This document shows positions 34,837 through 64,000 of a stretch of DNA of 64,000 nucleotides, one piece after another. Below the pieces are notes generated by a model. That model ran no database searches. It had not been told where the DNA came from and saw only the letters and a program-made list of their open reading frames with translations. Source of the stretch: Laetmonice hystrix. Taxonomy: Eukaryota. The DNA lies in contig OZ249436.1 in assembly GCA_965235115.1 (NCBI GenBank), positions 12,774,001 to 12,838,000 of the forward strand, written 5' to 3'. The position numbers and the translations under genes were made by a program. Positions within the stretch are counted from its first letter, which is position 1, and every line of letters begins with the position of its first letter.

Positions 34837-35480
34837 CGGGTAGGACTGAAATCGCCAGGTATGGAGTACTGGGGGGGGGGGGGGGGGGGGGGGGGCACAG
34901 GTGATGCTTCCCTTGCTCACTAGGTATTTAGTAAATTATCAGATATGTATTACAGGTAGGGCTTAGAACACAGTTATGTAATGCAGGTAGAACTGAACAC
35001 ATCAGGTATATAGTACAGGTAGGACTGAACCAATCAGGCATATAGTACAGGTAGGACGTAACACATCAGGCATATAGAACAGGTAGGACTTAACACATCA
35101 GGCATATAGTACAGGTAGGACTGAACCCACCAGGCATATAGTACAGGTAGGACGTAACCCATCAGGCATATAGTACAGGTAGGACTGAATCAGGTACGCA
35201 GTACAGGTAGGACTGAAATCATTCAGGTCTGTAGTACAGGTAGGACTGAACCCAACAGGTATACACCGGTAGTACAGGTAGAACTGAACCCATCAGGCAT
35301 GTAGTACAGGTAGAACTAACCCATCAGGCATAAGTACAGGTAGGACTGAAATCATCAGGTACGTAGTACAATGTACAGGTAGAACTGAATTCATCAGGTC
35401 TGTAGTACAGGTAGAACTGAATTCATCAGGTCTGTAGTACAGGTAGAACTGAATTCATCAGGTATGTAGAACTGGTAGGT
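34837..35480 (+). repeat. Minisatellite, about 17-18 copies of a 30-32 bp unit (AGTACAGGTAGGACTGAACCCATCAGGCATAT)
   Basis: Direct tandem repeats visible by eye. The first, degenerate copy is separated from the rest by a G25 run at 34871-34895. Confidence 0.93.
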
Positions 35481-37678: not shown

Positions 37679-37800
37679 GTATGAAGCGCGAGCTGGAAGA
37701 CGATGTGGACACGGAAGGCGTGGGAGAACAGTCCAGTCAGCTCAAGAGGAGGAGAGGCGAAGGGCCCCATGTGGAATTCCGCGTCTTACTTGCTAGCAAA
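37679..37800 (+). CDS. HNRNPK: hnRNP K exon: MKRELEDD...[19 protein letters not shown] (NLS-like basic cluster and start of KH1)
   Basis: Acceptor ttctgcAG 37677-78, branch-like ACTAAT 37645-50, ATG 37681, donor GTATGT 37801. Confidence 0.93.
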
Positions 37801-40800
37801 GTATGTCTTCCTATCAATATATCAGAAACGTATCCCTTGATTTAATGAACATGGAGTATTCAGGCCCCCTACCAATTTGATACTCCAGTGTTCTCCTCAG
37901 GATGAAAAGTGGCACTGGTCGTGTCCCACATGCAGCACAATAGTTCGCCAAAAGGTGAACCTGATGCTGATGAAGGCCTGACAGAGGGAGAGGACGGGAG
38001 GGGGGTACTCTACCTCTCGTGGGGGGGGGGGGCTCTCCAAAGAAAATATTTGTAAATAAGACTCCAAATGTTGTATATTGACGCTTTTCTAGGTAAAATT
38101 AAACTCTTTGGCCAGTCTGAATTTTTACTGAAAAACTGAGTAAAAAAGAAAATTGGGAAAAAAAGGGAAAGGTAACTTATATAGTAAGGGAACACTACTT
38201 CCTGATGGCATTTTGAATCTCATTTGTACTTCACGTTAAAAGTCCATGAAATAGAGATAAGTAAAAGTGTTGCCCAAAATTGATGTTCTCCATGCAAATG
38301 CCTGATGACTTACCCTACCCTTTTGTTTCTGACTTCACAGAATGCTGGAGCTATCATTGGCAAAGGTGGCTCAAACATCAAGAGGCTGAGAACAGACGTG
38401 AGTACTGACACATTTGACACATCAAACCCCAGTAGGGTCTCAGCAGCCCAAGGTGACTGCGGCTCAGTCGACTCTGATTCCCTCAGTGATCTAGAGATCA
38501 TATCTGAGGACAGTACACAGCCTTTGTGTAGAGTATGAGGAGAACGCAGCAGAGCTTAACTGTACCCACAAGTCCTCCATTTCCCAATGGTCGATGATAT
38601 GCAGCTATGAAATCCAGTAATAATAATTCATAAAGAGAACTCGCTAGAAGGATCGACAGTTATAATAGATACAGTGGATTTTTTTTCCTCTATTACTGTT
38701 TCTTTTTTTTTCTTTATTCTTTTTAATATAAGTCTCAAATAAAGTAACTTGGAGAGGGCTTTCCCAGTAGAATGAGGGAGAATCCCGCCTATTTCTGTAG
38801 AAGTAGATTCGAAGAAAGGAATACCCTAAAATAGACTCTAGATTTTATACAATATTGAATAATAATGACTATAGTGAATTGTTCCATTGTAATGCCCTAT
38901 TGTTTAATGATCAATCAGTTTGCTCAATGCTAAAGTTTATCAACCCTTTGCATGTTGGTTCTAGATAAATTCAGATAAAAAAGATTTGAGATTAGTTTAT
39001 TTTTTGTGGAAAAGTAATTTGAATGCCCCAAAATTCCGAATGTTTAATGCATTGTATACCATATCAGATTTTGTATTTGAAGACAAAATTTCTGTTTCTC
39101 TCTGGCTTTAAATTTTGCCTCGATAGTGTCTTTGGCATGAATAATTTTGACATTTTCCAAATTAAATATTTTTCCCGACTTGTTGCCATGCAAAGGGTTG
39201 CGTAATGTCCTTTCCAGCAGGAATTGAATGTCCTCTTTATACAGAATATGAAGCCCTCCACCCCAGCAGTCCAGAGGTATCCCAGTTGACTTACCAATTG
39301 CCTATATTTATTGCTAATTTACTCTAATGACTCATTATTATTATCTATCTTACATCCAGAGAACCAGACCTTTGTGCACAGATGCCCACCATTGTCCCAG
39401 ACCTGATAATGCTTTGATGCTTCCATGTCTTGTCTAGACTAAAAAGCAAGCAGAAAGTTGCCTCTTTTGTCGAAATGTCTTAAGGTTTAAATGAATCCAT
39501 GCAGATCGGTAAAGCTATAAATCCAGTTAGCAAAGTCGTATGGGTCCACTGTTAGACAAGGAGCTCTAAAATCCGTCTTTTTTACTTCATAATCGGTATA
39601 ATGTTTATTTTAAAGTTTATAATTTAGAAATAGATAATTATTTTGGTTAAAGTAGTGAATCCTTAGATTTCTTTCTCTGTATATAATACATGTTGAAAAA
39701 TAGTTTCCTCTTAGTTTATGGGTCCTCTAGAAGCCCCTCAGTTTCTCGTATCAGTGGTGATAAAAAAAGAGACGGATATATCCAAGTCTGTTGGTAACGT
39801 TCCAGAGACTTCTTGGAAACCTGCTTCTTTCTCCTTTTTTCCCTTTAATCCAAACTTTCTTACTTAATTTGAAATAAGTATTTTGATTTACAGCTTCTTT
39901 GCTTTTGTTTTCATTTCATGTCCACTTACCTGGCTCGCTCATTAGTGGTTAATGATTTAATTAATACTCGACTGTTTCTTATTATTATTACATTACAATA
40001 AACTTGATGCTTATGAAGCCTTTTTCCATTTTTATATAGGGAAGTGTGCCCCGTATAGAGGGCATGAGGCCCTGAAACCCCAGCCCCGCTGGTTCCTGCC
40101 TGATTTGCTGTGTACTTTAGAGAAAGTTATCTAGGTCCGGGGTCCACCCACTGGTGTCCATCTCCACGGCCTATGTCCAGCCCCGACCGACGCCGCCCGC
40201 CGTCATAAGACTGCTGTATGCTGCTCACTGTTTGCTGTTTGTGGTCAGGCCCGGGTCTGGGCCCGAGCCTCCTCTGGGTGCTAGGGATGGACGGCGGCGT
40301 GGCCGCTCACCCTGCAAGGTCCGACCTCCCTCCTCCATGGGGTTCACTGTGTTCCAGGAAAAAGCCCGTCGCCCCAGCCATGAGAGTGGGGCCTCTGCCT
40401 CCGGTCTGTCCACTCTCTCCAGTCCGAGACCTGTTGCTGTACTACTATTACTACTACAATATGCCATGCTGTGATGATAATGATGATGATGCTCTCTCCC
40501 TCTCTCACACCAGTTATGATCGTGATATCTATATATACCAGTAGATATACCGCTCTGCTGTATGTGTACATATGCATATATTATGCCATATGTGTGCTGT
40601 CAATGACCAGCATTCCACTTCAGATGTACTCATAATAACGTATTGTATTATATATCTACGTTGTGTCCTGGCCCGGCCCGTTTCTGACTGCCCGTTGGTC
40701 CACGCCCCTCAATACACTACAACACCACCACAAAATGTTGATGAATCCAACAAAATGGCATATGGCTATGCCCGTATTCCCTGACCTTGGATCGTGTCCA

Positions 40801-43800
40801 TCCATCCACCACTCAACTGCCCTATCCTTCGTCCTGGGCAGTACAAAGCAAGCGTTACGGTCCCCGATAGCAACGGCCCCGAACGGTATGCACACCATAC
40901 GTTCTAGCTACTCTACTACTATACATACATGCCACAACTGTTGGTTACTTTTGTTGTTATCTATTATAAAGCCAGATCTTGGCAGCACCGCCATGTACCC
41001 TTTGGGAGGACTTGAGCCAACAGCGCCCCCTAACGAGATTTTTGCTGTTACTTGATTTATTTGGGAGCAGTGTTTTGTAGAAGACAATCGGTATTATGTT
41101 TGCATATATAGCATTAGCAGTTTTCATAGGAGGGATTTCTGTAACAATGACAGCACGAATGCCATGACATGGCTCTTCCAACATGGTCTTTGACATTTTA
41201 ACATTTCATAAAACAGTCGGTGTTGAGGAAATAGGTGGCCCTGTTCCTCTTTTTTTGTACCTAGTAACTCAGTGCGTCATTGTTCTGATGCGGCATTTAC
41301 TCTTTGAAATCAGTGATCCCCCTTCGTGTTTTTTCACTTTAGTTTTTTATAACCTCTTAGTGTAATATGGCAATATAATGCTGCATTTGACTCAGGTAAC
41401 GACGAACAAATAATTTCTCTTGTTAATATCTTCAGTCCGCTGTCCGAATGATTACTGTATTGTTTTGGTGTCAAGACTTTTTTGTAGAAGACAGAAGTAT
41501 TTTCATTAGAATCCCTCTGTACTAGTCCCTAAGATCCCCAACCTTTAAACCAATTACCGGTAGATTAATAGATGTATCATAGATACTTGTCCGCCTGTTA
41601 AGAATTTGGACAGAAATTTTGAACCAGATTCCCCCATGAATGCCAATGATTATCTAGTAGATGCATTTTGGAAGCCCCAAATTCTTGTTGCGCTGTAGCT
41701 CACTAACAAACCTGTTTTAAAATTAGATGCAGGGTTGGGGGGTAAGGTAGGTCAAAGTTAAAAAGGTGGGTATCCATGTAGGTGGCGCTGTTGTAGGGTC
41801 ACTAATAGGGCATTGCTGTGGTATCTAGTGTTTGCTCAGCTTCTTTTTTCGTCAGAAATAGAGATAAGAACCCAACAGTAAATCTTGCAGTAGAAGTGGT
41901 GTTATTTTTTCATTTAAAGAAACATAAAGATGACTGAGTATAAAGGTATTTAAGCAACAGGCTACAGTTTCTGATTTAAGGCCAGAAAACTTGTTAAAAG
42001 ATAAAGGGAAAAGGTTATATCAGAAATACCTCGTGGTACACATGAACTTATCAGTTCCTCCTTTCACCAGTTCAGTAGTTATGTAATTTATATCTAATGA
42101 TTTACGGTACTTCACAGTGTTTGGCAGTGCAGCGTTTTCTAGGCACAACAGGGGTCTGCCCTGTCACAGAATCTTTAACTTTTCTCACCAACTCGTCCGA
42201 GTTTAGATAGAAGAAATAAATCATGATGGGTCTCATGCTGTTCTACTCCGCTGCTTCTATGAAACCTTCAGGAGGCTAGTATTTGTTAGTTTAAAGGATA
42301 TATATCCGGGGAGGATACATTGTTGGTACACTTTAATACAATTGTCCCCTTATTATTTGGGGGCACTACTACATTTATGTGGCATTATGGCCGCCGGTGG
42401 TGGTTGATTAGAATGTAGCGCAGTGGACATGAGTTGGGTTTGGGAGACTGTAGAGAATATACTGGGATCGTCAAGGGGTAACAAATTTCACGTGCCTTGA
42501 TGGCCAGGGGGAATGTGCGAAGGTGTGTCAGTGCCATCTCGCAGGTGTGATGCGGTTGCACCTCTAGGTTACAGTGCACCTTGGTGGGAGGTTCCTTCAG
42601 TCCCCGCTTTATAATACTCGGCTAATCCAACCCCATAGATATCTGAGCTCTTGTCATGCAGTATGTTGCCACAGTCGCCTGGCCTTCTACCACCTAGTAC
42701 CGATGTTCTCTTTATTGTTACCATCTCAAAACCACCTGTCCCAGTCATTATATTCTTATCCAGTGATCAAACAATAATGATGCTTGAAAGTTATTTCAAT
42801 CTGTTAAGATTTTACAAGAGAAAACAGAGAAAAAAGATGTAAACAGTCCTTGCATGTAAAAATAAATACCCATACTTTTCGACATTCTTGAAAAAGGGAC
42901 CTTTTTATAAGTGATTAAAAGAATATGCACAGAATTAAGCGATACCATTCAGAAAACAAAACTTCGTGGATGCCACCAAGGATTCCAGTTTCTGGCTTTT
43001 AACAAGTGGGGGTTCTCTGCACCTAAATTTTACCAAGCATGCCCATGCCGTTGTGACATGTTTTTGCTTTACTTTAATTTCCCCACTACACTAACTGTAA
43101 TTTTTTTGGTCTCAATGGTCATGGTGTCCCACGCCAGTGTGTGATCTCTCACTACATTTTTTTATGTCAGCTCTGATCCTATTTGGATAATAGAATCTAA
43201 AATATTAGTATAAACCCCAAAAGTCCTAAATTAAAGTCCCTTGTTATAGCAGCTGTTCAATAGAATGATTCCTAAAGAACACATGGTGTTGTTTTTCTGT
43301 TTTTGCAGAATTCTTACGGTCGGGGCTAATCTTGGCACGGTGTGCGAGATTTTGCTTGACCTCATCCCAACGCTGGAGGACGTAAGTTCAGAAGTAAATA
43401 TAGTGTTCCATACCTCTCGTAGCGATCTAACCGCCATGTTCACCCCACTAGCACATCTACAGCAAGCAGCCATAGTTTGTTCCCGCTCTTAAGGCAGCAC
43501 CAATTGGTATGGTCAGCGGTTAAGGTACCTGCTACATTTACTTGTAATAGTGAATTTTCCCATACATAATTCTCAGTCTTTGATCGTTTTAATCTTGAGG
43601 CATATCAATCACGTTGAGTTTATTCATGCGAATTTACTGTTTAATGATCTCGTTATGGGTGGAACTGAAAACAGGTGTTGGTGTTTGAAACAACAGCTCA
43701 GTTTTCTGACGAGTAAACAGTAGGACACCTGATGGTATGCCTTTGAGGTTGATTGATTAATAGACAAGGCCAATGTCTGTGCAGACAGTGATAAGTGTCC

Positions 43801-46800
43801 AGATTAAGGTGGCCTTCCTGTCATACCCTCCCCCCTCCGCGACACCTCTTTTTCTGCCAGTGCTTTTTGGGTGAACCAACGGTTCTAGACAGGAGGAACT
43901 AGTAAACTGAAGTGAGCATTTTTACCACATTTTCAACGAAACTGAAATTATTTTTCGGCAGGTAAATTACTTTAAACCTTGGAATAAACAAAAAAACATT
44001 TCTGGCTAGTTGTACTTGATCAGAGATGAAACTATTTGGAGTGTCGTTTTAAGTGCGACTATTTACCTGAGCTCTGTATTTGGTGGTGTGTTTGTTGATC
44101 GCAGTTTTGTTGTATACCAACAGTTCCTCCTGTGCAGTGTAGTTATTGTCATCATTACTGTTTGTGATATCTGTTGATGCTTTATGTGACGATGTCTAGC
44201 TCCCTGATAGACACATAATATGAAAGCTCTTTAATACGTACACGGTTCAGGATACGAACGCCATCGTTATGCACACATGTCAAGATACCAATGCCTTTCC
44301 CATATATGCAAGACACCAATGATTTCCTGGTGCGCATAGGATCTCATTGGCTTCCTGACATATCCAGGACACATGTGCTGTCCTGATTGTTACAAGCTGG
44401 CAACTGGCCCTGATAAAGGGCAAGGTATTGGGGATGATCTTAGGCTAGTTGGAAGAAAGTTCTGTTGGTGGGCCAGGTGGAAACCACAGAACATTTATGA
44501 GCATAATGATGAGGACTGAAGCGTCTGATATCAGACAGGCGGGCGTGGTAGAGTGTTTCAGGCCAACTCTCCAAATATTAAAACACTTTTTTTACCTCTG
44601 CTTGACACTATAACAGTTGACCAGCTACAACAGAAAAATTTAGTTTTTGGAAAGAAGCCGCGGGTATTGAGTAAGAAGTGCAGCGTGAAGGTGACTTTTG
44701 TGTCAGGGCGTGGTGTCGGTTTGAACCACGCCCAACCTTGTGCGGCAGTGAGGACATGGACCTCAAGAGGCTGGGTGTACGGCAAGGTTGGAGGAGCGAG
44801 AGGAGACACTGTTGGATAGCCTGCCACAGGGCCACCGCCCAGCCCCTGCCAGGTGAACGGGTGCAATCAACTTGAGCAGGTGCTCACGGAGGTGGAGCGG
44901 TACCGGTGGAGCCAACCCCGTGCCCGCCGCCACCGCCCGGCCTCGTGGCTGATGGTGGGAGGAAAGGCCATCGGAGCGGAGCAGTGTCAGTCCTGGCGCA
45001 TCGATTGAAACAGACCTTGTGTCACGTTCACCAGGACATGACCAGTCATTCTCCTGCTGCTCAGATCACATCATAAATGATGAACGATATTCGGGGGGAG
45101 GGGGGGGGGGAAGGCAGCCTCCAAGCACTTGGCTGTACATCAAGACTTAGGTTGTGCACTGTATTTGTAATAGCAAAACCGTAATTTTATCAGTAAATAG
45201 AACCTGAAGAAAACATTGTATCTTAGATCATGTATATTGGGTGCTGTATCTGTATCCTGCCTCGTTCACAGTACCTAGTTTGATTGTGGTGGGGGGGGGG
45301 GGGGAGATCATATCGATGACCTGAGCGGATCCAGGTCAGGGTGATTGCAGTGCAGATGTTCCTTGGCAAGGGAAGCAGGATGGGGGGGGGTGTCGTTCTC
45401 CACCCCAGTCATGCACACCTGGGGTATCCATCTAGGGCACGCACATGCCTTGGTCTGGGCTCGCTGTTTAGTGCCAAAAAGTCATGTCGTCATGTCTCTA
45501 TACAAAACAAAAATCGATTACTGATTGAAGGAGAAAATAGAAGCCGTTGTGAAGGGAAAATGTTGAAAGCCCAGGAGGAGAGACGGCCTTAGACTGAAGC
45601 CCCAGAGTGGCCAACAGGCTGTTTAATGATGTTTTTCAGAATGAATATAGGGTAATGTCATGTCGGTGAACTCTCAATAAGGACTTAGACTTACTCAAAG
45701 TGGTTTTTAAAAACCTGTGATGTATGGATACGTCAGAGCAGAGAGCCTCACCCCAGACAAGGAAAGGTCTCAGCTAGAGATGCTTGGCTCTGTATAAGCT
45801 ACACACTGTCTAAACTAACCTGTCCACCGAGCCTGCCCCTAGTGGTTGTGTGCAGCGTAAGGTGCTATGTAGAAAGTGTTTGGACCCTTTAGGCTATACA
45901 GAGAAGCACAGTAAAATTTCTGACACTTTTCCCTCACTTTGTCTGGATTTGTTGTTGCAGTGTCAAATATGCCATAAATATATTGTATGCAAATGGAAGA
46001 TGCAGTTTAAAAATAAGTAAAACAAATGAATAACTCGTTTTAACATAAGTGGTTAATTTCACCCATTTATTTGCAAAACAAAGAACAGCGATTTTTATTT
46101 GTCCTGTGCTGTTTGTAAGAGGCAATGTAATGGTGGAAATGACAACGACACAGGTAAAGTGTGATTTTTTTTTTAACAAAGGGAAACCTGGAACTTGGCA
46201 TCAGCAGAAGTTCCACGCATGAATCTGCAAAATTCCTAATATGGTATCCGTTTTACTTTGCAGTATCAAAGTTACAAGAACTTGGACTTTGACTGTGACC
46301 TACGTATGCTGGTACACCAAAGCCAGGCTGGTTGTATCATCGGCAGAGCCGGTTTCAAAATCAAGGAACTCAGAGAGGTATGTTGTCGCAAGGTATTAAA
46401 AGTATTCTGTTTTTGAAGAAAAACAAAGATTAAGAGTCAAGATGTTGCATAGTGTGTTTGTGCAGGTGTTGCCTCCAGTGAAGGACTGGTGTGTGTTAGA
46501 TTGATTACCACAATGATTTCGCCAAGTATGTGCCGTGGGACCTGTACATATGTAGGATGAGGCTGGTTTAGAAGTAGACCATAATGTACCGTTGTTATTT
46601 ACTTTGCAGGAGACTGGTGCAAACATCAAGGTGTACTCCCAATGTTGTCCTCAGTCGACAGAGCGAGTTGTTCAGCTGACAGGCAAACCACACGTCGTCA
46701 TCAACTGCATCGCCACAATCTACGACCTGCTTCAAACAGTAAGTCAGGTTCCTGCTGCCCACCTGTTTAAGCAGGCTTGGCGATAGCCAGAGAGGCACAG

Positions 46801-49800
46801 GTATATTCTGAGTTTTGGTTGCACCCAACATTTCCTCAGATTACAAGCCTGTTTCAGGACTTTTAATAGGTGAAAGTATTAAAGTAAACTTGGATAAGGT
46901 GAGCATATTAGGAAACGTTTGCCATTTGCCCACAGGCTCCACCCAAGGGATTCAGTAGTCCATACGACCCCCATAATTACGACGAGTTCTATGCTCACGA
47001 GTATGGAGGCTTCTCTGGAGCAGAGAGCAGCCGTCGCGGAGGTCAGGGTGATGGTGTGGCTACCGGACGGGGTGGACGAGGCGGCAGTCGGGGCAGGTGA
47101 GTAACAGAGGCCAGCTTTTGTTTTATAATATGAAAGACTAATCTCACTTCTGCTCTGACATATATCTGTCATTGCTTTACTGCATTCTTCTATTAATTTT
47201 GTGGTTTCCATGCTGTTAAATGGAAGGTGCTCTTTTTTTCCATGCAAGTCTGATTCATGGCTTCTCGAGCTGTTGTCTGTTTACTGTTTGCTGATGGTGT
47301 TTTATGCATTATTTCAGGGGCCGTGGTATGGGAGAAGGTGGCTTTGGGATGCGTGGTGGCCGTGGAGGCTCAGGCATGGGTATGGGCGGAGGAATGGGAG
47401 GACGTGGCGGCAGCATGGGCAGTATGGGGGCAGGCATGAGAGGAGGCATGGGAAGCCGAGGCAGCATGGGTGGCCGCGGAGGCCCCGGTGGTCGTGGAGG
47501 ATTTGGCAGGTGAGTGAAAGTCATGCTGAGGTTTGGCTCTTTGACCAGACATCACTCTGCATTAAATATATATTGAAGAATGTTTGATTTACATTTCAAA
47601 TTCTTCATCATGAGAAAACAAAATGAAAAGTATGGGTTAAAATGGCCATCACCATATATTCTACATAATATATGGTCGTTATAAAACAAAATGAAAAGTA
47701 TAATTTGAAAGGCAACACCACAGATTCTAGATGATATCTGGTCAAAGATACAATTAAGTCCCGATAATATCGGTTAGTACTGTGCAATTCTTTACCTGCT
47801 GAGTCCAGAGAGTGAACTGTGATGATGCCAGTAGATAATAATAGATAGTTGTATTACTTGCTCGCCGACACTCTATGCACACAATAAATATACACATGAA
47901 CATACTATGAATTCTTCCCCTGCGTGCCGCAATGTGCTGGCATAATTGACAAGAAAGGGACTACAGCCCAATCCTGATAAACTCTCTTCTCTTCCTCAAT
48001 AGTTCCTTCCAAAGCAGGAACGAAGAAAGCAGGTAAGCTGCTTTAGTCCAGTCCAAAACCTAACCCATCATGCACTAATAATCTTTTCACCTTTGGCATT
48101 TCTATCAAAGAAAGCCTGTCGGGGCTCGTCTCTTACCTGTCTTCTTTGAAAGAAATTTTGTCTTAAGGAACATCACATATATAGTTGTCTACTACCCCAA
48201 GGAAGAGGTCGACTTTCATCTCTTGTTTTGTCGAGATGGTGACATTCAGAATGGTTCCAAAAAAGAAGTGCATATTGCTTAAGTGTGCTTTCCAAATTTG
48301 ACCCAGACCAAGCCAAGTTCCAGTCCAGCAATGTTACCATTAACTTTAAGGCTTACCCAGCCGTGTACATCCACAGAAATCCCTCCCCAGTAACCCGACC
48401 GCCAACCGTAGTATGGGTGTGTGTGTATAATATACATGACAGCAGGGGATTCAAACCCTGCATGTATTACTGCCTTTGGCCAAGGTGCCATTCTTTCATC
48501 TTAAATCATGCACTTGCTGTTCAAGAATACTTCGTTATGACCCTGACTTGCTTGAAAACACCCTTAGGGCAAATTGTTTGAAACCACATTAATATAGTAG
48601 TAGACAGGTACTTAACGGTGGAGAGTGTCCTAGTGGTATGAGTAGGCTGATGGAGGTGGAGGATACACGATTTTAGAAATCACCATTTGATGTTGCATAA
48701 TTTCATTTAGAACTTTACACGTGACCAAGGTATGAAGATGTCGCGTTGTTGAAAACCACGTCACTGGGTCGTGGGGCTGTTTGGCAGTTTGCAGCGATGT
48801 GTAAACGTATTGTCATTTCCCTCCTTTCAGGGGAAGATCAGAAGGCGTAGCATCACTCATGCAAGGATCTTCACAAGACATGGGGTAAGATTTTTGTTCT
48901 TCATAGCAATTAAACATTAATCGAGAACTTTAAAGGTTTCAGTTAAAATTCCCCCCCCCCCCCAAAAAAAAAACTGGGGATAATGTTAGTGCATCGATTT
49001 TGATATATAGGCTTCAAGCCATGCTTCAAATTTATGACACGTTATATGTTATCTCTGACAGAGGTGGCATGAATGGCTATGGAGGCAACCGCGGCGGAAA
49101 CATGGGAGGTGGAATGGGTAAGTCTGGTTTTGCATTTGCGTTTCCAAATATAGTATACAGTGGTCCCCCTCTTAAAGACCACCCCTTATAAGCGACCACT
49201 CGCCTCTAGCGACCGCATTTCCATTGCATTAACCACTTCACACTATAATTCCACCCCTATAAGCGACCACCCGGCACTAACGACCAGCGACCGGCATATC
49301 CCTGCATCAACTCCACTGGTCACCCCTTATCAGCAACCAGCCTTTGAGAATCAGCCAGCCGTGGCTAGTCATAACACTTGTCTCCCCATGCCCGCCTGCC
49401 TGGCACCCTGCTGACCTAACACCAACACCGCCCCCCACCCACCCACTTCCATCCCACAATGGCCGGCCACGTGTCTCACCTTACCCGCCCGACTTCCATC
49501 ACACGGCCCAACCAATCTAATTAAAATTAGATCTTGGTATTCCGCGTCTCTCTCGGCTGTGTCAGTGTTGCCGCGCTCCATATGAGCGCATGCGAAATAA
49601 CTAAGACCTAATTTTAATTAGATTGACGGCCCAACCTTCCATCACACTTTAAGCTAACGGTTTTGCTCCCCCTCCTACTACCATGCCTGTTGAAAAAACG
49701 GTATGTCACCAACTGGCTGGTTGAAGCAACAAAATGTCTGAGGCAAACCAGACTCATGTATACACAGGTGCAGAGTACGATTTCCTACATATATGCCGTC

Positions 49801-52800
49801 TGACTAGGATCAGTCACCATTCAGATTCAATCTCTATTGCTGGACACATCACAGAAATGGCATCATCAAATCTCACTGGGAAGTCGCCACCTAGTGTTAA
49901 CTGTGTGTAGTTATCTCATATGCAGCCACCTGGTGGTAACTATGCGTACTTAACAACCCCTCGTTTAGGCGACCACCCGCCACTAGCGACCACTTTCTCT
50001 CTGCAGCAGGGGTGGTCGCTTATGAGGGGGACCACTGGTACTGGTACTCATCAGTGTATGTGTCTGAGGAGGGCAATGGCTTTCTGCTTATACCTCTGTT
50101 ACGACTGTTTTACCAGAAGAATTTATAAGACTTCAGGTCAGGATGCATGGCATATTTAACATCACAATTATTGTTGTAACCAAGAGACCCGTAGAAGAGG
50201 TAATATGATGGGTTCTCTTCATTTTTGCAGGTATGGGCGGTGGTGGAGGCGGTATGGGCGGTGGAATGAACCAAAATTTTACACAAGACACCATGGTAGG
50301 TACAGAGGTATGACCGTATGTGTGTTTCTGACTTATCCTAACTTAAGGCTAATTAGACTCAAGCTGATTCAAATGACATCAGGTCTAGATCTGATTTGAA
50401 AAGTATTCAACTTTTGCCGTTTTATTTTGTACTGAAAACAATAGCTGACTGTATCGTTGCTGTTTCAGAGTGGCATGGGTAACCAGGGTATGATGTTCGG
50501 CAACCAGTCCACCACCACTACACAAGTCAGCATTCCAAAAGACGTAAGTAAAACGCCTGCGCCCCCTAGTGGCAACTGCAAGAACTGCGTTATTGTAGCA
50601 TCTCCAGGTTAAGAGCAAAGGTGTTTGGTGACGGCTTTTGTGTAGTCTGTGTGAGTGGTGAGGCTCTTGGCGGCATCGGTTTTTGTGCTTTCTCCATCAT
50701 CAAATTACCTGACTGCTCCTAAGCGAGTTCATCTTTGATCTAGGTGCCACCTAGCTACGGGGGCATGCACTGAAGTTCACTCTTTGTGATACTACGCATC
50801 AAAGCTTTTCATGTTGAACGAGAAGCAAACGAGTTCAAAGTAGATAAGGAAACACAGGGGAGGATGAAACTCTAGTAAGGTCCAAAACACTAGTGAAGTA
50901 GGGATGGAAAGTGCAGGCGTGATACTGATGGCTGAACGAGTCATACACTGATGCTGAATGGATTATATGACAGGGTTAGAGGTCATCTGGTACAGACTCG
51001 TAACCCATATCAGAAGTATAGGGAACTTAACTTCAATCTACAATAAAACCGAGGTTGTTACAACTTACAGACTGATAGATTTGATGCTGATAGGTTAATT
51101 TATATGAAAAAGTCAACGATTGTTATTGTTAATCCAGTTGTAATTGTAAGCACGTCATGATCTCTTTTTTTATTTTGTATTTCAGCTTGCTGGAGCAATT
51201 ATCGGCAAAGGTGGTTCACGTATCCGGCAGATTCGACAGGAATCAGGTGCTGGCATTACAATCGATGAACCCGTGGCAGGATCCAATGACCGCATCATCA
51301 CAATCACAGGCTCCCAGGAGCAGATACAGAACGCGCAATACCTTCTACAGATGAGGTGAGTCTAGTCAGATATGCATGGAGTAGGGCTGGTTAACTGGCT
51401 ACAGCAGTTCAACTGTACAATAAAAACTTGCAGTAGAAATTACAGTAGTAGTAGTTTGATGCATATTCCTAACTAACTTATAGCACTAATTAAGAAATAC
51501 TGTTTAAGCTGGAAATCAAGTGATAGTATGAAACGTAGCACTGGAGGTGTATTAGTTAACACTTATAAAAAGTATTTAAGAGCTAATTCTAATGATAAAA
51601 TCAGTTAAGGAACCTGACTCGTTTAAGTGTATCATATGGGAGACTGAAAGTTGGGTTTCTGGCTCATCACGTCACGTGTCAGTGACTTTTCTAAAGTGCC
51701 CTGGTGCCAGGTGAATTTGTGAGACCAATAGCCCCTTAAAAACAAGACATTACATTATTCCTAGTTAAATGGTAATATCCTTTAATGTTAGCAGGAATGG
51801 TAAAGCCCAAATTATTGGAGGCAATCTCGCCTTTGAGAATTCAGATTTATATTTGTATGTTTGCGGCAATAGCTGTAGATAATAGTGCTCTAAAGGTGGT
51901 TCCGTACACAAGATGATAGGAAAAAACGTAATTCCATGGGCAGAGTTTGTGAATTCAAGTCATATTCCAAACCATGCCATAGAAAAGTATCTTGTTACCA
52001 TTATCCCTACACACGCTATCATGTGTACAGCGTTGCTAGGACGACCCTATGGATTTCCTTTTGTGACCACTATCATAGTTTGCTCATCAGCTAGTCAAGC
52101 ATGGAACTCAATAACGCATAACAAACAGTCTTATGGCATAGGGGTGTGCAGTCAATGCAAGTTGGGCCGTGGCTTGTTTACATGATGTTTATGTTGTTTG
52201 CCTGGCTGCTGCCACTGGCCACTAGCTCAGGTAGACACACGTAACTTCTGCTGGAAAACTCGGGGTGGTATTGATTGAGCCAGATGTAGACTAGCTGAAG
52301 GTTCTTGGCGGGGCACCCAGAATAACTTAAGATGAACAGCCTAGATGGGGCAGAACGATACGTTTTCTCGCGATACGATACGAAGTCACGATATGATTCA
52401 CGATACGATTTTTTGATACAGTAACTTAAGTACCATTTAACCATTTCTGTATGTTTTAAAAGCATGGCTAGCTACCCGAAATGCATGGGTAGGAATCAAA
52501 ACCAATCAGAGTAGCCGTTGTAAAATCAACGTTTCTAAGTTCCAAACTGGGGAAAATGTTGTGATTCATGAGTTTTATTGATTTCTTTAAAACGTTAATT
52601 TTTTCACGATACATAGCCCTGCGTATCGCGATTCGTATCGTGCCCCCTGAATCAGCGATTCATCGATACGATGAATAGTTCCAGCCCTACAGCCTAGTCA
52701 CCAAAGGTGGTGGATGGCTAACAGCATCCATTATATGGACATCTCCATAATGTATTACTGACTTAATGCAGACAGGGTAGTATGTATACATACGTTTGCT

Positions 52801-54681
52801 TTAAATACCGTAGTTAATATAGATGGGGGGGGGGAACATTTTGGTGGCATGAACCTGAAGGGTTAAAGATAACTCATTTACTATGTTACTAAACTCCCCA
52901 CAAAAGTGGCATGTACAAAATCTGAACCTAATTGCATGTAACGTGTAGTCCAGCTTTGCAACTGAAATAAGTGGCTTTATAGATAACAAGCAGTGTAGAA
53001 CTAGAGTGCTTGTAGTTTTGGTGCAGTGGACGGCAGTAGCTATGGTTACAGATAATTGGTGATGGTATCCTGGCTACAGGAATGCAATTTGGTGGCGGTG
53101 CAGCTCTTCTGCTGGAGCGTTTGGACCCCCTGGTGGCAGGTGAATGAACTAATAGGGTTTAGAGCTTAGGGATGGCATGCATGATTTGGAAGACTAGTGA
53201 TTTTGTTGTTTTATACTCGATAACAATGAATCGCTATCTTCCGTAATTGTGCATGCTGCTAACAGCATGCTAACGGGTGAAGGGAGAGCACTAACTGCAT
53301 CATACGAACAACAAAACCAACTGCCTAACTCCGCCTTATCTACTTCTTCCTGACTGCCTACCTATGCAAAGCAGCTGCATGATGGGAAGATACTGGCTTC
53401 AGTGAGATGACCCATTCTATCCGCCTCACTCTGGACCCTGGTCTTACCAATCTCTCCATTTACCAATATGGGACCTCTTGTACCTAAATTGGAAAGGAAT
53501 ATTATCCTTATTTAACCAAATGTGTGTGTATTATTCATAATTATCATGTACTATATTTTTTGAGAAGGTGACGTTTTACGGAATTGGGGGAAACGGTATT
53601 ATGAACAATACCACAGTTTAAATGAAGAAAGATTTTGGTGATCTTTATGATCCTGCTTGTAGTATGTGGTAATTCTGGTCAATTATGTACATGTATAGAT
53701 GTCATTAAGTCAAAGCTACAAGAAAGTGCTACTTTTCACTTTGAAATATGTAATGGTATAAGACCAATTGTTCAGAAGAACAGGAATACAGTTTCCTATG
53801 GTGTCTTGGGTTAAGGCCCGTGTTTCCTGCTTTATTGTGCTCGGGCTGTGATATATATTAGACATATATATTGATATTGGACGGTAGTGTCCTTTTGGGT
53901 CAGCATTATATATTGGGAAGAATGCGGTATCTCCAAACAAGATATTGGTATGGAATTTATATTCGTATATTCAGAGGATAAGCAAATGGTATGTTTATGG
54001 TTGAAAGCAGAAGATGTAATGACCTATTCCATTACCCTTATAGATCTATATCTGATTTGTTGCGTATCTTTCATAGAAGTGTCTTTGTGTCAGATGTTGA
54101 GGAATGGAGTTGAGTAACGATTTGGGTTACATAGGCAAGAAAAGAAGTGGAAATTGGCACTGCAAAGTACACATGGCATTAACAAAGTAGTTGATATATA
54201 TCATTTTCGTATATTCAGATGTTAGAAGTGCACACAACAAATATTGTAACAATTCGGTGACGGCGCCTGGAGCTTTATGGATGTCTTATTGTACAATGAT
54301 GGGCGTTGGTATTACCACGTGTGGTTGCCGAGACCAGGAACTGCTACCAATAAATGGTCGTTAGGTACTAACCCACCAAGGAAAAACAAGGCCATATTGC
54401 ATTTTCTGGTATTCATATTGTCTCAAATGTAGTAAGGCGAGGTTCACGAGACAGTGTAAGAAATTGAAAGCAAATGAGTGTCTAGGTCAGTGCTTCGCCT
54501 GAGATAAAAATGGCAACATTGTGATGGACGGTAGTCAACTTAGTGTTGTATGCGAAAGGGAGGTGCCAATGACAGATCGGAGTGCACTCCAGAATTGGAA
54601 AAGTTTATCTTTAAATGTTTCTAACACATTATCTTTTTTCACTCTCTTTGCAGTGTTAAGCAACATTCTGGGAAATACTAA
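37681..54681 (+). CDS. HNRNPK: Heterogeneous nuclear ribonucleoprotein K (three KH domains), multi-exon gene; core CDS 427 aa, up to about 464 aa with optional exons
   Basis: Core exons 37681-37800, 38341-38397, 40842-40885, 43309-43381, 46264-46377, 46610-46738, 46936-47096, 47318-47509, 49062-49117, 50231-50295, 50469-50543, 51186-51355, 54654-54681 (1284 nt including stop). All have GT-AG introns and matching phases. The translation follows hn[50 protein letters not shown] (KH1), [29 protein letters not shown] (KH2), [14 protein letters not shown] region, [19 protein letters not shown]...[18 protein letters not shown] (KH3). Confidence 0.96.
38341..38397 (+). CDS. HNRNPK: hnRNP K exon: [19 protein letters not shown] (KH1 GxxG loop)
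   Basis: cacAG acceptor, GTGAGT donor, phase 0-0. Confidence 0.96.
40842..40885 (+). CDS. HNRNPK: hnRNP K 44-nt exon: [15 protein letters not shown]
   Basis: Not represented in this frame in the ORF track. ggcAG acceptor, GTATGC donor, phase 0-2. Matches hnRNP K YNASVSVPDSSGPER. Confidence 0.95.
43309..43381 (+). CDS. HNRNPK: hnRNP K exon: [24 protein letters not shown] (end of KH1)
   Basis: tttgcAG acceptor, GTAAGT donor, phase 2-0. Confidence 0.95.
46264..46377 (+). CDS. HNRNPK: hnRNP K exon: [38 protein letters not shown] (KH2)
   Basis: tttgcAG acceptor, GTATGT donor, 38 codons. Confidence 0.96.
46610..46738 (+). CDS. HNRNPK: hnRNP K exon: [43 protein letters not shown] (KH2)
   Basis: tttgcAG acceptor, GTAAGT donor, 43 codons. 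Confidence 0.96.
46936..47096 (+). CDS. HNRNPK: hnRNP K exon: [26 protein letters not shown]...[10 protein letters not shown]
   Basis: cacAG acceptor, GTGAGT donor, phase 0-2. Contains the PYDPxxYDE motif of hnRNP K. Confidence 0.95.
47318..47509 (+). CDS. HNRNPK: hnRNP K exon: RGG/Gly-Met-rich low-complexity linker
   Basis: tttcAG acceptor, GTGAGT donor, phase 2-2; corresponds to ORF 47304-47513. Confidence 0.92.
48003..48032 (+). CDS. HNRNPK: Candidate 30-nt cassette microexon of hnRNP K ([11 protein letters not shown])
   Basis: Long pyrimidine tract ctctcttctcttcctcaatAG, donor CAG|GTAAGC, symmetric phase 2-2, open in frame. Confidence 0.55.
48831..48884 (+). CDS. HNRNPK: Probable 54-nt symmetric exon of hnRNP K ([19 protein letters not shown])
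   Basis: tttccctcctttcAG acceptor, GG|GTAAGA donor, phase 2-2, open in frame. Confidence 0.7.
49062..49117 (+). CDS. HNRNPK: hnRNP K exon: [19 protein letters not shown]
   Basis: gacAG acceptor, GTAAGT donor, phase 2-1. Required to keep frame with the next exon. Confidence 0.88.
49158..50037. mobile_element. Tc1/mariner-pogo type MITE (880 bp) in an hnRNP K intron
   Basis: TA|CAGTGGTCCCCCTCTTAAAGACCACCCC ... GGGGTGGTCGCTTATGAGGGGGACCACTG, a TIR of about 28 bp with subterminal GCGACCAC repeats. Confidence 0.9.
50231..50295 (+). CDS. HNRNPK: hnRNP K exon: [22 protein letters not shown]
   Basis: tttttgcAG acceptor, GTAGGT donor, phase 1-0. Confidence 0.87.
50469..50543 (+). CDS. HNRNPK: hnRNP K exon: [25 protein letters not shown] (start of KH3)
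   Basis: tttcAG acceptor, GTAAGT donor, 25 codons. Confidence 0.94.
50558..50588 (-). promoter_or_regulatory. CTCF-like binding site with upstream motif
   Basis: Minus strand reads GCAGTTC-TTGCAGTT-GCCACTAGGGGGCGCA: a near-consensus core with GCAGT at the spacing of the upstream motif. Confidence 0.6.
51186..51355 (+). CDS. HNRNPK: hnRNP K exon: [57 protein letters not shown] (KH3)
   Basis: tttcAG acceptor, GTGAGT donor, phase 0-2. Confidence 0.97.
52345..52689. mobile_element. hAT MITE with 8-bp target site duplication
   Basis: CAGCCTAG at 52337-44 and 52690-97. Termini ATGGGGCAGAACGAT / ATAGTTCCAGCCCTA; CGATAC subterminal repeats. Confidence 0.88.
53187..53245 (+). ncRNA. mir-7: microRNA-7 precursor in the last intron of hnRNP K (mature 5p at 53187-53210)
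   Basis: TGGAAGACTAGTGATTTTGTTGTT is the canonical miR-7-5p. The 3p arm AACAATGAATCGCTATCTTCCGTA pairs with it, and the lower stem is GCATGCATGATT/AATTGTGCATGC (extended hairpin about 53174-53257). Basal UG at -14 (53173) and CNNC (CAGC, 53263). The host position matches human HNRNPK and Drosophila bancal. Confidence 0.97.
54654..54681 (+). CDS. HNRNPK: hnRNP K terminal coding exon: S-VKQHSGKY*
   Basis: Strong pyrimidine tract and tgcAG acceptor. Matches the hnRNP K C-terminus SVKQYSGKFF. TAA at 54679-54681. Confidence 0.93.
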
Positions 54682-55624
54682 ACGGCACCCCCTGGCGTGA
54701 TTGCTTACCACTATACCTCATCTACGTCATCACGTCCATGACGTCGCGCCATATGACGTTATGATGTCCCGTCATTCGCGGCTTAGCCTGTAAAACTTAA
54801 GCAGCCATCCTAGTCTTTGATGCGTTACAATGATCACGAGCTATAGTTTATACAGTGACAGAGCGAGTGACTTTCTACAGAGAGGGAAGGACACCAACAT
54901 ATAGCTCCAGACATTGAATCTACAGTCATAACCTACAGTGTCCATACTTTACTATTGCAAACTATCTTTGATGATACGGATGATGAAGTGGGACGAAGAT
55001 GATGATGTTGATGATATTTCAGTTATAAACATTTAGGCAGCATATCTGTATGGTAGTTGTTGACATCTCTAGATGTCTTACTTCTCGATAGTGGTGTTTA
55101 CTAATTCCCTCTCCCATTTCCCACTTCAATTGTTATTATCACTTGGGAACTGTTCGGCCTCCCACACATTCATAATGTACGCCCCTCTTTTGTTGAATTC
55201 TTATCTATTTCCTCAGGCTAGATTTGCATTAACTGTATCTGTAGATTATATTTACGATATGGCTGTATCTGTCTGCAAATTTACATCCATCATGAAAGCT
55301 TATTTGAATTGGTTACTTGACAAATAACTTCATTACTGAAGTGTAGCCAAATTATTTTCATATATATACGAGATACACTGTGTACTATTCCAGACGTGCT
55401 GTAGTTAGGCCGAGTGAAACGAGCAGATAGGGAGATTTCACTCAGCTATAGGATAGGTTTTACGGATGGAATTAGAGTGTAGACCTGTGGAAGAAGACTT
55501 TATTTGAGAGTGTCGGTCTCTCAACCAGACGTCTTGTTAAGTTGATTGAATAGGGAGAGAAGGTTTAGTTTTGTACAAGTATGTTTTTATGCCATTTTAG
55601 TATGTATCAGGAATTTGGTAATTC

Positions 55625-55630
55625 AATAAA
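55625..55630 (+). terminator. Putative polyadenylation signal of hnRNP K (3' UTR about 0.95 kb)
   Basis: AATAAA about 950 nt after the stop, with U/GU-rich sequence downstream. Confidence 0.55.
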
Positions 55631-61500: not shown

Positions 61501-63239
61501 CCATTCCTTTGTTTGTTTTTCAGTGAAAGGGGTGCTGAGCTCACCCTCACATGTCAAGGCAGACAACCTAGAATTTGACAAAGTAATTGTAGTAATTGGT
61601 GTTGTTGATATTTTTAGCAACTGGGAGCCCAGGACTAAGCAGTAGAGAAACTATTAGCCAAACCTTTGTTCCCTAAACCAAGCTTCAGCATGATCTAAAG
61701 TAGCATATAGATCAAAAATTGAAAATATATATAGCTACTATAATTACTGCTAGATCCAGCTGGCATAGTGAGCACTATCGGTGCCCAGGGGCAAACTTAA
61801 CTTATGGCACTCCCCATTTCCAACTTGAAATATAATGTTATGGCATCACAATTTGGCGCCCCCTATACTTTTGCACACAGGGGCAAATCCCTGCTCCCTG
61901 CCACCCCCTCACTATGCCACTCGACCAGGCTACAGAAAATCAACACAAGTAGTACTTTTAATTTGTTGTTTGTATCACTATGGGGCAGACAAGGTGAAAC
62001 ATAGGGGCCTACTACCCCTCTTCTCCGGGTAAGCCAAAATGCTCATGCCAATGAAATTATGGTTAACCTAAATTTTGCCAAGTCCCTTTATTTGGCTGAA
62101 TTTGGCAAAAATTAAAGGCAGTGTATGTAGTATGTGGTAGGGTCACGTGACCATTAACACAATCATATTGGATAATGCTCTAGGGCTAAATAGCCAACTA
62201 TCCAATTAAGACCTAACGGTCAACCATTTTGAGACAAAAATAAAACTAGCCCAAGGCCTGACCCTAACCCTAACCCAAGCAATTTGTTTGAATTTGGTAA
62301 TTACAGTGGTCAAAATGGAAAATGGGGCAGTACTCACTTTGACAGACCAGTGCACCTCGGGTGGTACTGGTTTAAAAGTATTGGTCAGTACTGGTCCATA
62401 TATTTACAATATATCTTCCGACGCTACTGTAAAGTAATGATAATGTTGAGTTTGCTGTTAGTGTAAATATAATTGATTGCACTTGTAATGCATGGTATAT
62501 TTGTTCTTTTTCCTCTATCTATCTAGACTTAGATTGCAGACTGACAATTTTCCGGGGGGGGGGGGGGGGGGGGGGGCTAAACAGGTGTTAGTGAGTAAAG
62601 CTGCCTCTGTCATTTGTTTACACAGGATTAGATGGAGGTAGGGGGTTTCTGGGCTTCCTCTTGCCAATAGGCCTAATCATCTTTAGCCACCGTGGCTAAA
62701 ATGGGTAACCAAATCCTGTAGCCACATCAGAATTTCTTTAGCCACATCTCCCGACCGAAATATTAATAAATTAATAAAGACAAGGCAACTGATACGTGAA
62801 ATAAACACTTTTTCATATGACATGGAACAATAATCTCCTTGCCTTTCTTGGAATTTTTATATTCACCAATGTGGCGAAAATATGGTATTTTTCGCAATAT
62901 TTTCTTTTGCCATTTTGCTCTGTTTTTGACCAATGCGAATGTGGCGAACGGCTAGCGGAAGACGTTGTTATTTTTCAGGAGCCATGCCCATGGTCCTAGC
63001 CTTTGATCTAGACTATGACATTAATAATTTCTGACCTACCCACAGACACTGTCTAGCTCTGCTATCATCTCAGCTGTAACACTCATCTTCTCTGCGGCAA
63101 TTTCCAAGAAAGGCTTCTCCCCCTTATCATCATTTTCATCGTCAAGGTATACTTTAGTGTCATGATATAACTCTTCCACAAGTTCCTTAATGTTAATAAG
63201 TGGATAAACGTCGCCATCCACAGCTGCAGCTGAAGCCAT
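58382..63239 (-). CDS. SNAPC3: snRNA-activating protein complex subunit 3 (SNAP50), 9 coding exons, 385 aa
   Basis: Exons 63239-63040, 61567-61463, 60857-60761, 60520-60416, 60254-60114, 59974-59892, 59656-59489, 59229-59122, 58532-58382 (1158 nt including stop). All are GT-AG with matching phases. Motifs [55 protein letters not shown] and [18 protein letters not shown] (SNAP50 C-terminal zinc finger). Confidence 0.96.
58630..59035 (+). mobile_element. Helentron/DINE-1-like non-autonomous element in the last SNAPC3 intron
   Basis: Repeated CACCAA(G/A)TTTGAAA blocks, AAAATGGC..GCCATTTT palindrome, GGACAGAGACGGA microsatellite remnant and a 3' CCC..GGG hairpin. Assigned on architecture only. 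Confidence 0.45.
59122..59229 (-). CDS. SNAPC3: SNAPC3 exon 8 ([36 protein letters not shown])
   Basis: caacAG acceptor, GTAAGT donor, phase 2-2. Confidence 0.94.
59489..59656 (-). CDS. SNAPC3: SNAPC3 exon 7 (PIREWAK...[23 protein letters not shown])
   Basis: cttcAG acceptor, GTAATC donor, phase 2-2. Confidence 0.96.
59892..59974 (-). CDS. SNAPC3: SNAPC3 exon 6 ([28 protein letters not shown])
   Basis: cctaAG acceptor, GTGTGA donor, phase 0-2. Confidence 0.95.
60114..60254 (-). CDS. SNAPC3: SNAPC3 exon 5 ([47 protein letters not shown])
   Basis: tttcAG acceptor, GTAAGT donor. Confidence 0.95.
60416..60520 (-). CDS. SNAPC3: SNAPC3 exon 4 ([35 protein letters not shown])
   Basis: taacAG acceptor, AAG|GTAGGA donor, phase 0-0. 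Confidence 0.87.
60761..60857 (-). CDS. SNAPC3: SNAPC3 exon 3 ([32 protein letters not shown])
   Basis: ttttcAG acceptor, GTAGGT donor, phase 2-0. Confidence 0.82.
61463..61567 (-). CDS. SNAPC3: SNAPC3 exon 2 ([34 protein letters not shown])
   Basis: ttctAG acceptor, GTAAGT donor, phase 2-2. Aligns to GLDKLKC...IPENTDLVTL of SNAPC3. Confidence 0.88.
63040..63239 (-). CDS. SNAPC3: SNAPC3 coding exon 1 ([18 protein letters not shown]...ELDSVC-G)
   Basis: ATG at 63239, donor GG|GTAGGT. An acceptor tgtgcAG 9 nt upstream of the ATG (exon start 63248) suggests a 5' UTR intron. Confidence 0.85.
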
Positions 63240-64000
63240 CGTGGACTTCTGCACACAGAGCGTTTCACACAGTCGCAGCGAACCTCGGCTTAGCCTGGTG
63301 AAAAGGCCCTGCCAAGCCTCAGGCCAGTCAGGGTCCTGCCCGGCTCCTCACACCTCCCGTCCCGGGGCGGGGGGGGTATCCAATCCAGTCAGTGCAGGAC
63401 AGGCACCCACTGAGCCAGCCAGATACGTACTACTAATTTAGAATTAAGGAAGCAACAAATAAACAGGTTATTTCACACCCTGAAGCATTCAGACGAAGGA
63501 ACGTCTGCGATACCACGTCTGCTAGTTTTATTGATATTGTCAGAGGGTTTCCGATGTTGTCTTCAACCAACCATCGTGCGCGTATGGGCGATAATGTGAG
63601 AAAAGTGGGTTGTCACCAAAGCCTGATTAGAGAGTTGGTATGGATGTGCCACTACGCTGAGCGTTGTGCGGCATCTCCCACCGTGCATCATGTTAGAAAA
63701 TAGTTCTTAAATTTTTGGATGATATCCGAGTTTATCTGAGATGCCATGGTTCAAATATAAATCCGACTCATTGTACTGTGTATACAAATACATCTAAATT
63801 AATCTATCTGCTGTTTACATCCAAAGAGAGCTATATAGGTCAAGACTCAAGTAGTCCTTCGAGCTATCCCAGCAGCAGCTGGCTGCAGAGATTGATTACG
63901 TCGGAATCAGATTCTGCACCACACGCCCCGGATGAGACCCGACCTTGACCCGCGGCGAAAACATTGAAAACGAGGGACTCAAGAATCAGATGGCCAAAAG

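Follow-up and report, generated by a model that had tools for sequence, protein, structure and literature searches.

Across bilaterians, miR-7 is restricted to particular tissues and yet lies within a broadly expressed gene. Because this host, hnRNP K, is broadly transcribed, the output of miR-7 would be set at the processing step, as is established for mammals; the mammalian solution involves HuR/MSI2, QKI, SRSF1 and NF90 (PMC6298569, PMC4600152; papers are cited here by PMC number). Which signals could play this role in an invertebrate? The question is raised by a stretch of 64,000 nucleotides of contig OZ249436.1 (hereafter the window), which carries a miR-7 hairpin in the last intron of an hnRNP K gene. 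A sequence-only reading of the window had described the hairpin, a cluster of four CTAAC motifs downstream from it and TGCATG motifs on both arms of its lower stem, and had proposed an ancient bilaterian module through which Quaking, and possibly Rbfox, control miR-7 biogenesis. Our analysis indicates that the feature is real and that emphasis should shift from Quaking to Rbfox: judging from sequence comparison, the strongest conserved signal is of the Rbfox type, is confined to the 3' side and is mainly annelid-like.

A miR-7 hairpin in the last intron of hnRNP K

The hairpin was recognized by the Rfam model RF00053 (mir-7) at positions 53173-53258 of the forward strand, with 54.3 bits against a gathering score of 51.8, and is the sole Rfam match in the window. 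Its fold has a z-score of -8.67, none of 200 shuffled sequences being as good. The 3' end of the precursor, 53245, was derived from the 5p start at 53187 and a 2-nt overhang (Table 1). Relative to the predicted Drosha cuts, a basal UG lies at -14/-13 and a CNNC (CAGC) at +18, as in canonical Microprocessor substrates (UG at -14/-13, CNNC at +16 to +18). Thus, the precursor and both Microprocessor motifs read from the letters were confirmed. A second candidate hairpin, at 53360-53470, was discarded (z = -0.13, with 85 of 200 shuffles as good). No variant was seen at 52836-53428 in the 40 of 57 rows listed, a result that was not used as support.

The host gene was modelled with GT-AG borders and an open frame across its 13 exons, the last four of which (three junctions) are joined in one spliced contig of run X4. 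This run has no library record and is termed RNA-like solely for its spliced contig; the four runs represent one sample, possibly the very source of the window. The joint across the last intron rests on one contig of depth 671, and the donor of exon 10 was placed at 50307 by the spliced contig. Together, the exon model and the spliced contig bore out the assignment of miR-7 to the last hnRNP K intron (51356-54653), where it lies in sense orientation after the KH3 exon. Since the best named relatives of this exon are from Capitella teleta (91%) and Ridgeia piscesae (89%), gene and animal are annelid-like, which denotes likeness and not identification.

Two GCATG sites at fixed positions beside the hairpin

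An exact scan of metagenome contigs for mature miR-7 yielded 56 loci, collapsing to 37 groups besides the window. One locus was kept per group: 15 have an hnRNP K exon in the available DNA (hosted loci), 17 do not (control loci, whose host status is unproven either way and which were not matched for introns), and five were set aside with host unknown, two of which (L033 and L011) later gave terminal exons. Taxa were assigned from blastx likeness where exons were present; for L019 and L036, the terminal exon and the flanking sequence led to the label annelid-like. Termite-like, bird-like and flatworm-like are used as presumptive labels. Pattern scans of viral contigs and genome contigs gave no matches.

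Alignment of the window with its three closest loci (L019, L036 and L048) revealed the same arrangement past the hairpin in all four sequences: TGCATG at +4/+5 (site 1), a spacer of 8-9 nt, then C[AT]GCATG with its first C at +17/+18 (site 2). The GCATG of site 2 overlaps the CNNC in four of four loci; the CNNC itself is present in all of them, and the UG at -14 in only two. The pattern TGCATG-N8-9-[AT]GCATG, which was derived from the same loci in which it was counted, occurs once on the two strands of the window and in three of the 56 loci, each time directly 3' of the hairpin. At fourfold-degenerate sites of the KH3 exon, the window and L048 agree in only 5 of 24 cases; neutral sequence is therefore saturated, and the two are not recent kin.

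In the lower stem, the 3'-strand GCATG is invariant in the four loci, its 5' partners vary, with G-U pairs and, in two of the four, a non-pair, and none of 11 pairs shows compensatory covariation among these four sequences. Because the 3' letters are fixed, their partners drift and no two-sided changes are seen, the constraint bears on the 3' letters. The two stem copies of TGCATG are not independent, as GCATGC is its own reverse complement, and the copy on the 5' arm is a by-product of pairing with this near-palindrome. Hence the earlier description holds insofar as both copies exist in the window (53178 and 53250), but we rejected the notion of two sites, given that the 5' copy is absent from all three closest loci. 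Three of four annelid-like loci share with the window a conserved (U)GCAUG on the precursor. In an exploratory count, GCATG with GGTG no more than 8 nt behind it near the hairpin was confined, among the fetched loci, to the four annelid-like ones, apart from the window; in the fourth of these loci, L006, TGCATG and then GGTG lie upstream of the hairpin, outside the stem. The sequence-only reading had missed the GCATG at 53265 over the CNNC, along with an ACTAAT at 53148 and a cluster of core and half-sites at 51469-51490.

CTAAC motifs are enriched without a conserved cluster

The four CTAAC copies lie where they had been reported, the third (53291) being part of an ACTAAC, and form the single place on either strand of the 64 kb with four copies in 71 nt. 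Dinucleotide shuffles of 53246-53345 produced four CTAAC in 4 of 20000 cases and four of any complex 5-mer in 123 of 20000; some complex 5-mer is found four times in 71 nt at 16 places in the window, many of them repeats. The full ACTAAY core is present in the third copy only. It forms, with TAAC at 53271, the single bipartite QKI element of the cluster (53271-53295), core and UAAY half-site being no more than 20 nt apart according to the definition of the QKI response element used (core plus half-site; PMC9786888).

The expectation that CTAAC would be conserved downstream of the hairpin failed for the cluster. Only the first copy, at +14, recurs in place, in L036; L019 has TAAC there and L048 has TAGC. 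Copies 2-4 are not matched in these three loci, four copies are seen in none of the 15 hosted loci, and in five of the 15 the 250 nt around the hairpin are free of CTAAC. On the 5' side of the 5p arm, CTAAY occurs at 30-39 nt in L019 and L048 and at 21 and 47 nt in L033.

CTAAC itself is nonetheless enriched in relatives. Since CTAAC and TGCATG were chosen from the window alone, and the counts exclude the window, the related loci allow both motifs to be tested fairly on outside sequence. Up to 250 nt from the hairpin, the 15 hosted loci contain 19 sense and 2 antisense CTAAC (7 in the 17 controls) and 14 sense and 2 antisense TGCATG (none in the controls). Under a dinucleotide model, TGCATG, GCTAAC and CTAACC rank 1, 2 and 3 of 4096 hexamers in hosted loci, and GCATG and CTAAC rank 2 and 3 of 1024 pentamers; in control loci, CTAAC ranks 404 and TGCATG 4007. 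The densities of CTAAC and TGCATG are 2.8 and 2.1 per kb at the hairpin against 0.66 and 0.33 per kb in upstream exon-masked DNA of 12 hosted loci. In seven long introns, TGCATG occurs 10 times in 3.5 kb at the hairpin against 7 times in 11.7 kb elsewhere (p = 0.002), and CTAAC 9 against 12 times (p = 0.036). At least two CTAAC copies, the form of STAR-type CUAAC repeats, are found in 8 of 17 hosted and 1 of 17 control loci (p = 0.008), and the strand bias persists when the four annelid-like loci are removed (12 sense, 2 antisense; p = 0.006).

A proposed protein landing pad on pri-miR-7

We propose, with a probability of roughly one half, that the basal junction of pri-miR-7 carries a built-on landing pad for proteins, led by Rbfox and assisted by STAR proteins, which would tune cleavage by Microprocessor; we infer from the motifs which proteins take part, that they bind, and what they do and in which direction. 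In annelid-like animals, two GCAUG sites flank the basal junction. Site 2, with a predicted opening cost of 2.2-5.1 kcal/mol, should be cheap to open and overlaps the CNNC, through which SRSF3 recruits Drosha (PMC6298569); an Rbfox protein bound there may displace SRSF3 by competition. A second Rbfox protein at site 1, on the 3' strand of the lower stem (8.2-13.4 kcal/mol), may melt or shorten the stem from which Drosha measures. Further avidity would come from STAR proteins (QKI/How/ASD-2 type) bound to CUAAC repeats close by and from a GU-binding protein at GGUG, helper sites whose number and placement would change through turnover. The likely output would be repression of miR-7 in muscle and glia, rated at about 60:40 against activation through the breaking of a competing flank hairpin. 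The choice of muscle and glia follows the tissue patterns of Rbfox and STAR proteins. The flank hairpin (53251-53270) is predicted at -13 kcal/mol in the isolated flank (z = -1.44) and, in context, is 4.3 kcal/mol less stable than the native stem.

There are precedents in other systems. Human pri-miR-7-1 is repressed by QKI-5/6 (PMC9786888, PMC4600152, PMC11703483), Rbfox blocks Drosha on precursors bearing GCAUG in their terminal loops (PMC4872098), and the Caenorhabditis elegans STAR protein ASD-2 binds CUAAC repeats lacking the 5' A (PMC3469465), which fits the form of the motif enriched here.

Several findings weigh against the landing pad. The comparison of stem and flank relies on four sequences (the window, L019, L036 and L048), and the annelid-like L006 has neither of the 3' GCATG sites. 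The predicted fold has site 1 paired to 74-100%, and Rbfox binding is inhibited by RNA structure (PMC4872098). When the four annelid-like loci are left out, the TGCATG count falls to 5 sense against 2 antisense (p = 0.23); in eight non-spiralian loci, CTAAC stands at 7 against 1 (p = 0.035) but at p = 0.09 against controls. ACTAAY is not enriched (7 in hosted, 9 in control loci; p = 0.62), and bipartite QKI elements are present in 5 of 17 hosted and 2 of 17 control loci (p = 0.20). Finally, TGCATG, CTAAC and GCTAA are standard conserved motifs beside alternative exons (PMC3001076), and the miR-7 intron does have an alternative exon in relatives. Because of the weak non-annelid, non-spiralian, ACTAAY and four-copy results, what had been called an ancient bilaterian module is, as far as sequence comparison goes, a modest statistical CUAAC signal and not a conserved cluster; the sense-strand enrichment of both motifs stands, with TGCATG mainly annelid-like.

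Alternative explanations

The motifs may instead control splicing, the leading alternative, to which we would give rather long odds: Rbfox, STAR and GU-binding proteins would select alternative C-terminal exons in the miR-7 intron. Their motifs would gather at the hairpin because the intron is under constraint there, and miR-7 would at most be affected secondarily, through splicing. Two of the annelid-like loci, L036 and L048, share a block of acceptor, open reading frame, stop and donor (SAR...DY-stop type) 1.0-1.2 kb upstream of miR-7, and a Mytilus-type protein, P0087, has 84 residues identical to P0081/P0082 followed by a different, SAR...DY tail. Four termite-like loci (L033, L027, L040 and L008) have a stop-bearing exon, with a donor 33 nt later, about 1.85 kb downstream of miR-7. 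The same set of motifs marks introns beside alternative exons elsewhere (PMC3001076, PMC1500816), and a further group of motifs lies close to the 5' splice site in the window (51373-51490). However, a clear homologue of the alternative exon was not found in the window's intron, and the one RNA-like run, whose contigs drop rare forms, shows the direct joint only. Moreover, splicing control requires neither a fixed spacing to the Drosha site nor an overlap with the CNNC. A SAL-type frame after the AG at 51885 was considered as a homologue of the SAR...DY exon and rejected for its weak tract and the lack of a good donor. The landing pad and splicing control are compatible and can both hold. It is conceivable, at similarly guarded odds, that this intron houses an old post-transcriptional switch, in which Rbfox, STAR and GU-binding proteins around the hairpin would control Microprocessor cleavage and, at the same time, which C-terminal exon hnRNP K receives. 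The motifs would be kept across bilaterians by turnover of sites and hardened in annelid-like animals into tandem GCAUG over the SRSF3 site. One tissue splicing programme would then decide where a broadly transcribed intron yields neuronal miR-7, and miR-7 output would be linked to the alternative hnRNP K C-terminus.

It seems unlikely that the conserved flank serves only Microprocessor and RNA folding (stem length, CNNC and the palindrome-based flank hairpin), with extra CTAAC copies arising from local duplication or drift and binding nothing important. Such an origin would suit the first two CTAAC copies, which lie within a short direct repeat (53251-53274), the lack of positional conservation of copies 2-4, the hosted loci devoid of nearby CTAAC, and the constrained CNNC inside site 2. 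Yet a CNNC fixes two bases and not GCATG, conservation of one side of a stem is unexpected from pairing alone, and the TGCATG-GGTG of L006 is found outside the stem. The strand bias of CTAAC also persists after removal of three branch-point-like sites (16 sense, 2 antisense; p = 0.0007). We regard it as very improbable that the CTAAC copies act as SF1/U2 branch points serving a cryptic acceptor (53371/53374), giving a short alternative terminal exon in competition with Drosha. At about 1.3 kb from the 3' splice site, the cluster is too distant to be an ordinary branch point. CTAAC 4 and a CTGAC at 53350 do precede a pyrimidine-rich run and a tandem AG, and a far stronger instance follows the hairpin of the fish-like L023. 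The pyrimidine share in the window, however, is 0.53-0.59 against 0.65-0.88 at the 12 modelled acceptors, all of which are stronger; copies 1 and 2 precede purine-rich sequence; L019, L036 and L048 lack the acceptor at that place; and in relatives 9 of the 19 CTAAC are on the 5' side of the hairpin. One RNA-like contig (53264-53414) reads through the place without being spliced, and no joints into 53325-53374 are listed in one RNA-like assembly, which cannot show absence.

Features of the window and further observations

Table 1. Coordinates of the miR-7 element, its flanking motifs and its host gene in the window.
Feature	Position	Strand	Basis or remark
hnRNP K (HNRNPK/bancal orthologue) coding region	37681-54681	+	13 coding exons, 431 aa
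KH3 exon, adjoining the miR-7 intron on its 5' side	51186-51355	+	Pfam KH_1, E 2.7e-19
Last intron, hosting miR-7	51356-54653	+	joint skipping 3298 nt, GT..AG, run X4
Second motif group near 5' splice site: TGCATG 51373, bipartite QKI-type element 51469-51490	51373-51490	+	motif scan
ACTAAT, full STAR core	53148-53153	+	39 nt upstream of 5p arm
Basal UG (53173-53174) and 5' lower stem	53173-53186	+	holds TGCATG at 53178
pre-miR-7	53187-53245	+	ends inferred from fold; mature 5p ~53187-53210
Rbfox-type site 1 (TGCATG), 3' lower stem	53250-53255	+	+5 to +10 from predicted Drosha cut
Competing 8-bp flank hairpin, site 1 x site 2, CTAA in loop	53251-53270	+	predicted fold
CTAAC 1	53259-53263	+	at +14; final C is first C of CNNC
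CNNC (53263-53266) overlapped by Rbfox-type site 2, GCATG (53265-53269)	53263-53269	+	kept in 4/4 aligned loci
CTAAC 2 (53270), GGGTG (53275), ACTAAC (53290), CTAAC 4 (53325)	53270-53329	+	motif scan
Weak resemblance to a cryptic acceptor, with CTAAC or CTGAC before a pyrimidine-rich run and a tandem AG	53325-53374	+	pyrimidine share
Terminal exon and 3' UTR	54654-55630	+	RNA-like contig reaches 55550; AATAAA at 55625

The exon shared by L036 and L048 is cassette-like, spans about 1213-1156 nt and 1019-968 nt upstream of miR-7, respectively, and has its donor 2 nt past the stop; it would give a different hnRNP K C-terminus. Insect hnRNP K proteins fall into at least two C-terminal classes. In L023, a CTAAC, a tract of 98% pyrimidines, an AG and a short in-frame peptide lie 220-300 nt downstream of the miR-7 5' end and constitute a candidate alternative acceptor. 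In the window, the group at 51373-51490 combines TGCATG with dense ACTAAY/TAAY motifs just inside the 5' end of the last intron. Exon 10 has two in-frame GT donors, at 50296 and 50308, 12 nt apart, of which the RNA-like contig uses the second. Parts of the 3' half of the last intron (53035-54254) are also covered in the RNA-like run, by contigs with a depth of just 5-11, where the spliced form reaches 671. The intronic contigs skip 53185-53263, as would fit Drosha cleavage, but they are 151-nt pieces at a depth of about 5 and nothing was drawn from them.

Seven loci with no hnRNP K exon in the available DNA (L005, L014, L037, L039, L045, L050 and L051) carry tandem miR-7 copies 100-250 nt apart; L016, L017, L029 and L038 are other such loci, with apparently unusually long loops. 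Elsewhere in the window, a high-copy repeat resembling a miniature inverted-repeat transposable element occupies about 52340-52690 of the last intron, reaching up to about 15 times the depth of its flanks in three DNA-like runs, and an element with inverted-repeat borders was spotted by eye in hnRNP K intron 9 (about 49158-50040). A long trinucleotide run (about 34290-34400) and a CAGGTA-bearing tandem array (about 34950-35460) lie upstream of the gene. On the minus strand, 63036-63347 holds an open frame resembling the first coding exon of a convergent gene, with no Pfam match.

Comparison with known systems

The miR-7/hnRNP K arrangement and the control of miR-7 by QKI in human cells are already known. 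The MIR-7~hnrnpk linkage has been dated to Bilateria (PMC11848845); the window adds a further instance, and that paper, in its available parts, treats gene position and not the flanking protein-binding motifs. A literature search, with subscription papers mostly outside its reach, found no paper describing the flanking motifs of invertebrate miR-7, which is weak evidence of novelty. On this footing, three findings may be new: the tandem GCAUG that covers lower stem and CNNC in annelids, the CUAAC excess across phyla and the alternative tail exon. The GCAUG pair is a precise, mutable element for tests in annelids and, if the landing pad exists, would place Rbfox at the basal junction as a competitor of SRSF3.

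Human pri-miR-7-1 under QKI is the closest parallel: it shares with the window the miRNA family, the host intron and STAR-type motifs near the hairpin. The window differs in being from an invertebrate and in having mostly CUAAC without the 5' A. Two hosted loci, the bird-like L009 and the fish-like L023, have CTAAY within 250 nt, as does the window, but lack at the same place the tandem GCAUG that is conserved in position at the basal junction. In the precursors blocked by Rbfox (PMC4872098), as possibly here, GCAUG could impede Drosha by way of a changed fold; the sites in that study are in the terminal loop, whereas those of the window lie on the lower stem and over the CNNC. Its main text does not mention miR-7, and its supplementary GCAUG tables may list it. 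The window's combination of motifs has a further counterpart in the muscle splicing code of C. elegans.

Rbfox and SUP-12 are known to cooperate on egl-15. In C. elegans muscle, ASD-2 on CUAAC repeats acts with SUP-12 on UGUGUG in intron 1A of unc-60 (PMC3469465). Like the window, this code places intronic CUAAC repeats beside GU-rich and GCAUG elements. The nematode elements, however, lie beside a splice site and govern splice-site choice, whereas those of the window are centred on the miR-7 hairpin, with both modelled splice sites over 1.3 kb away.

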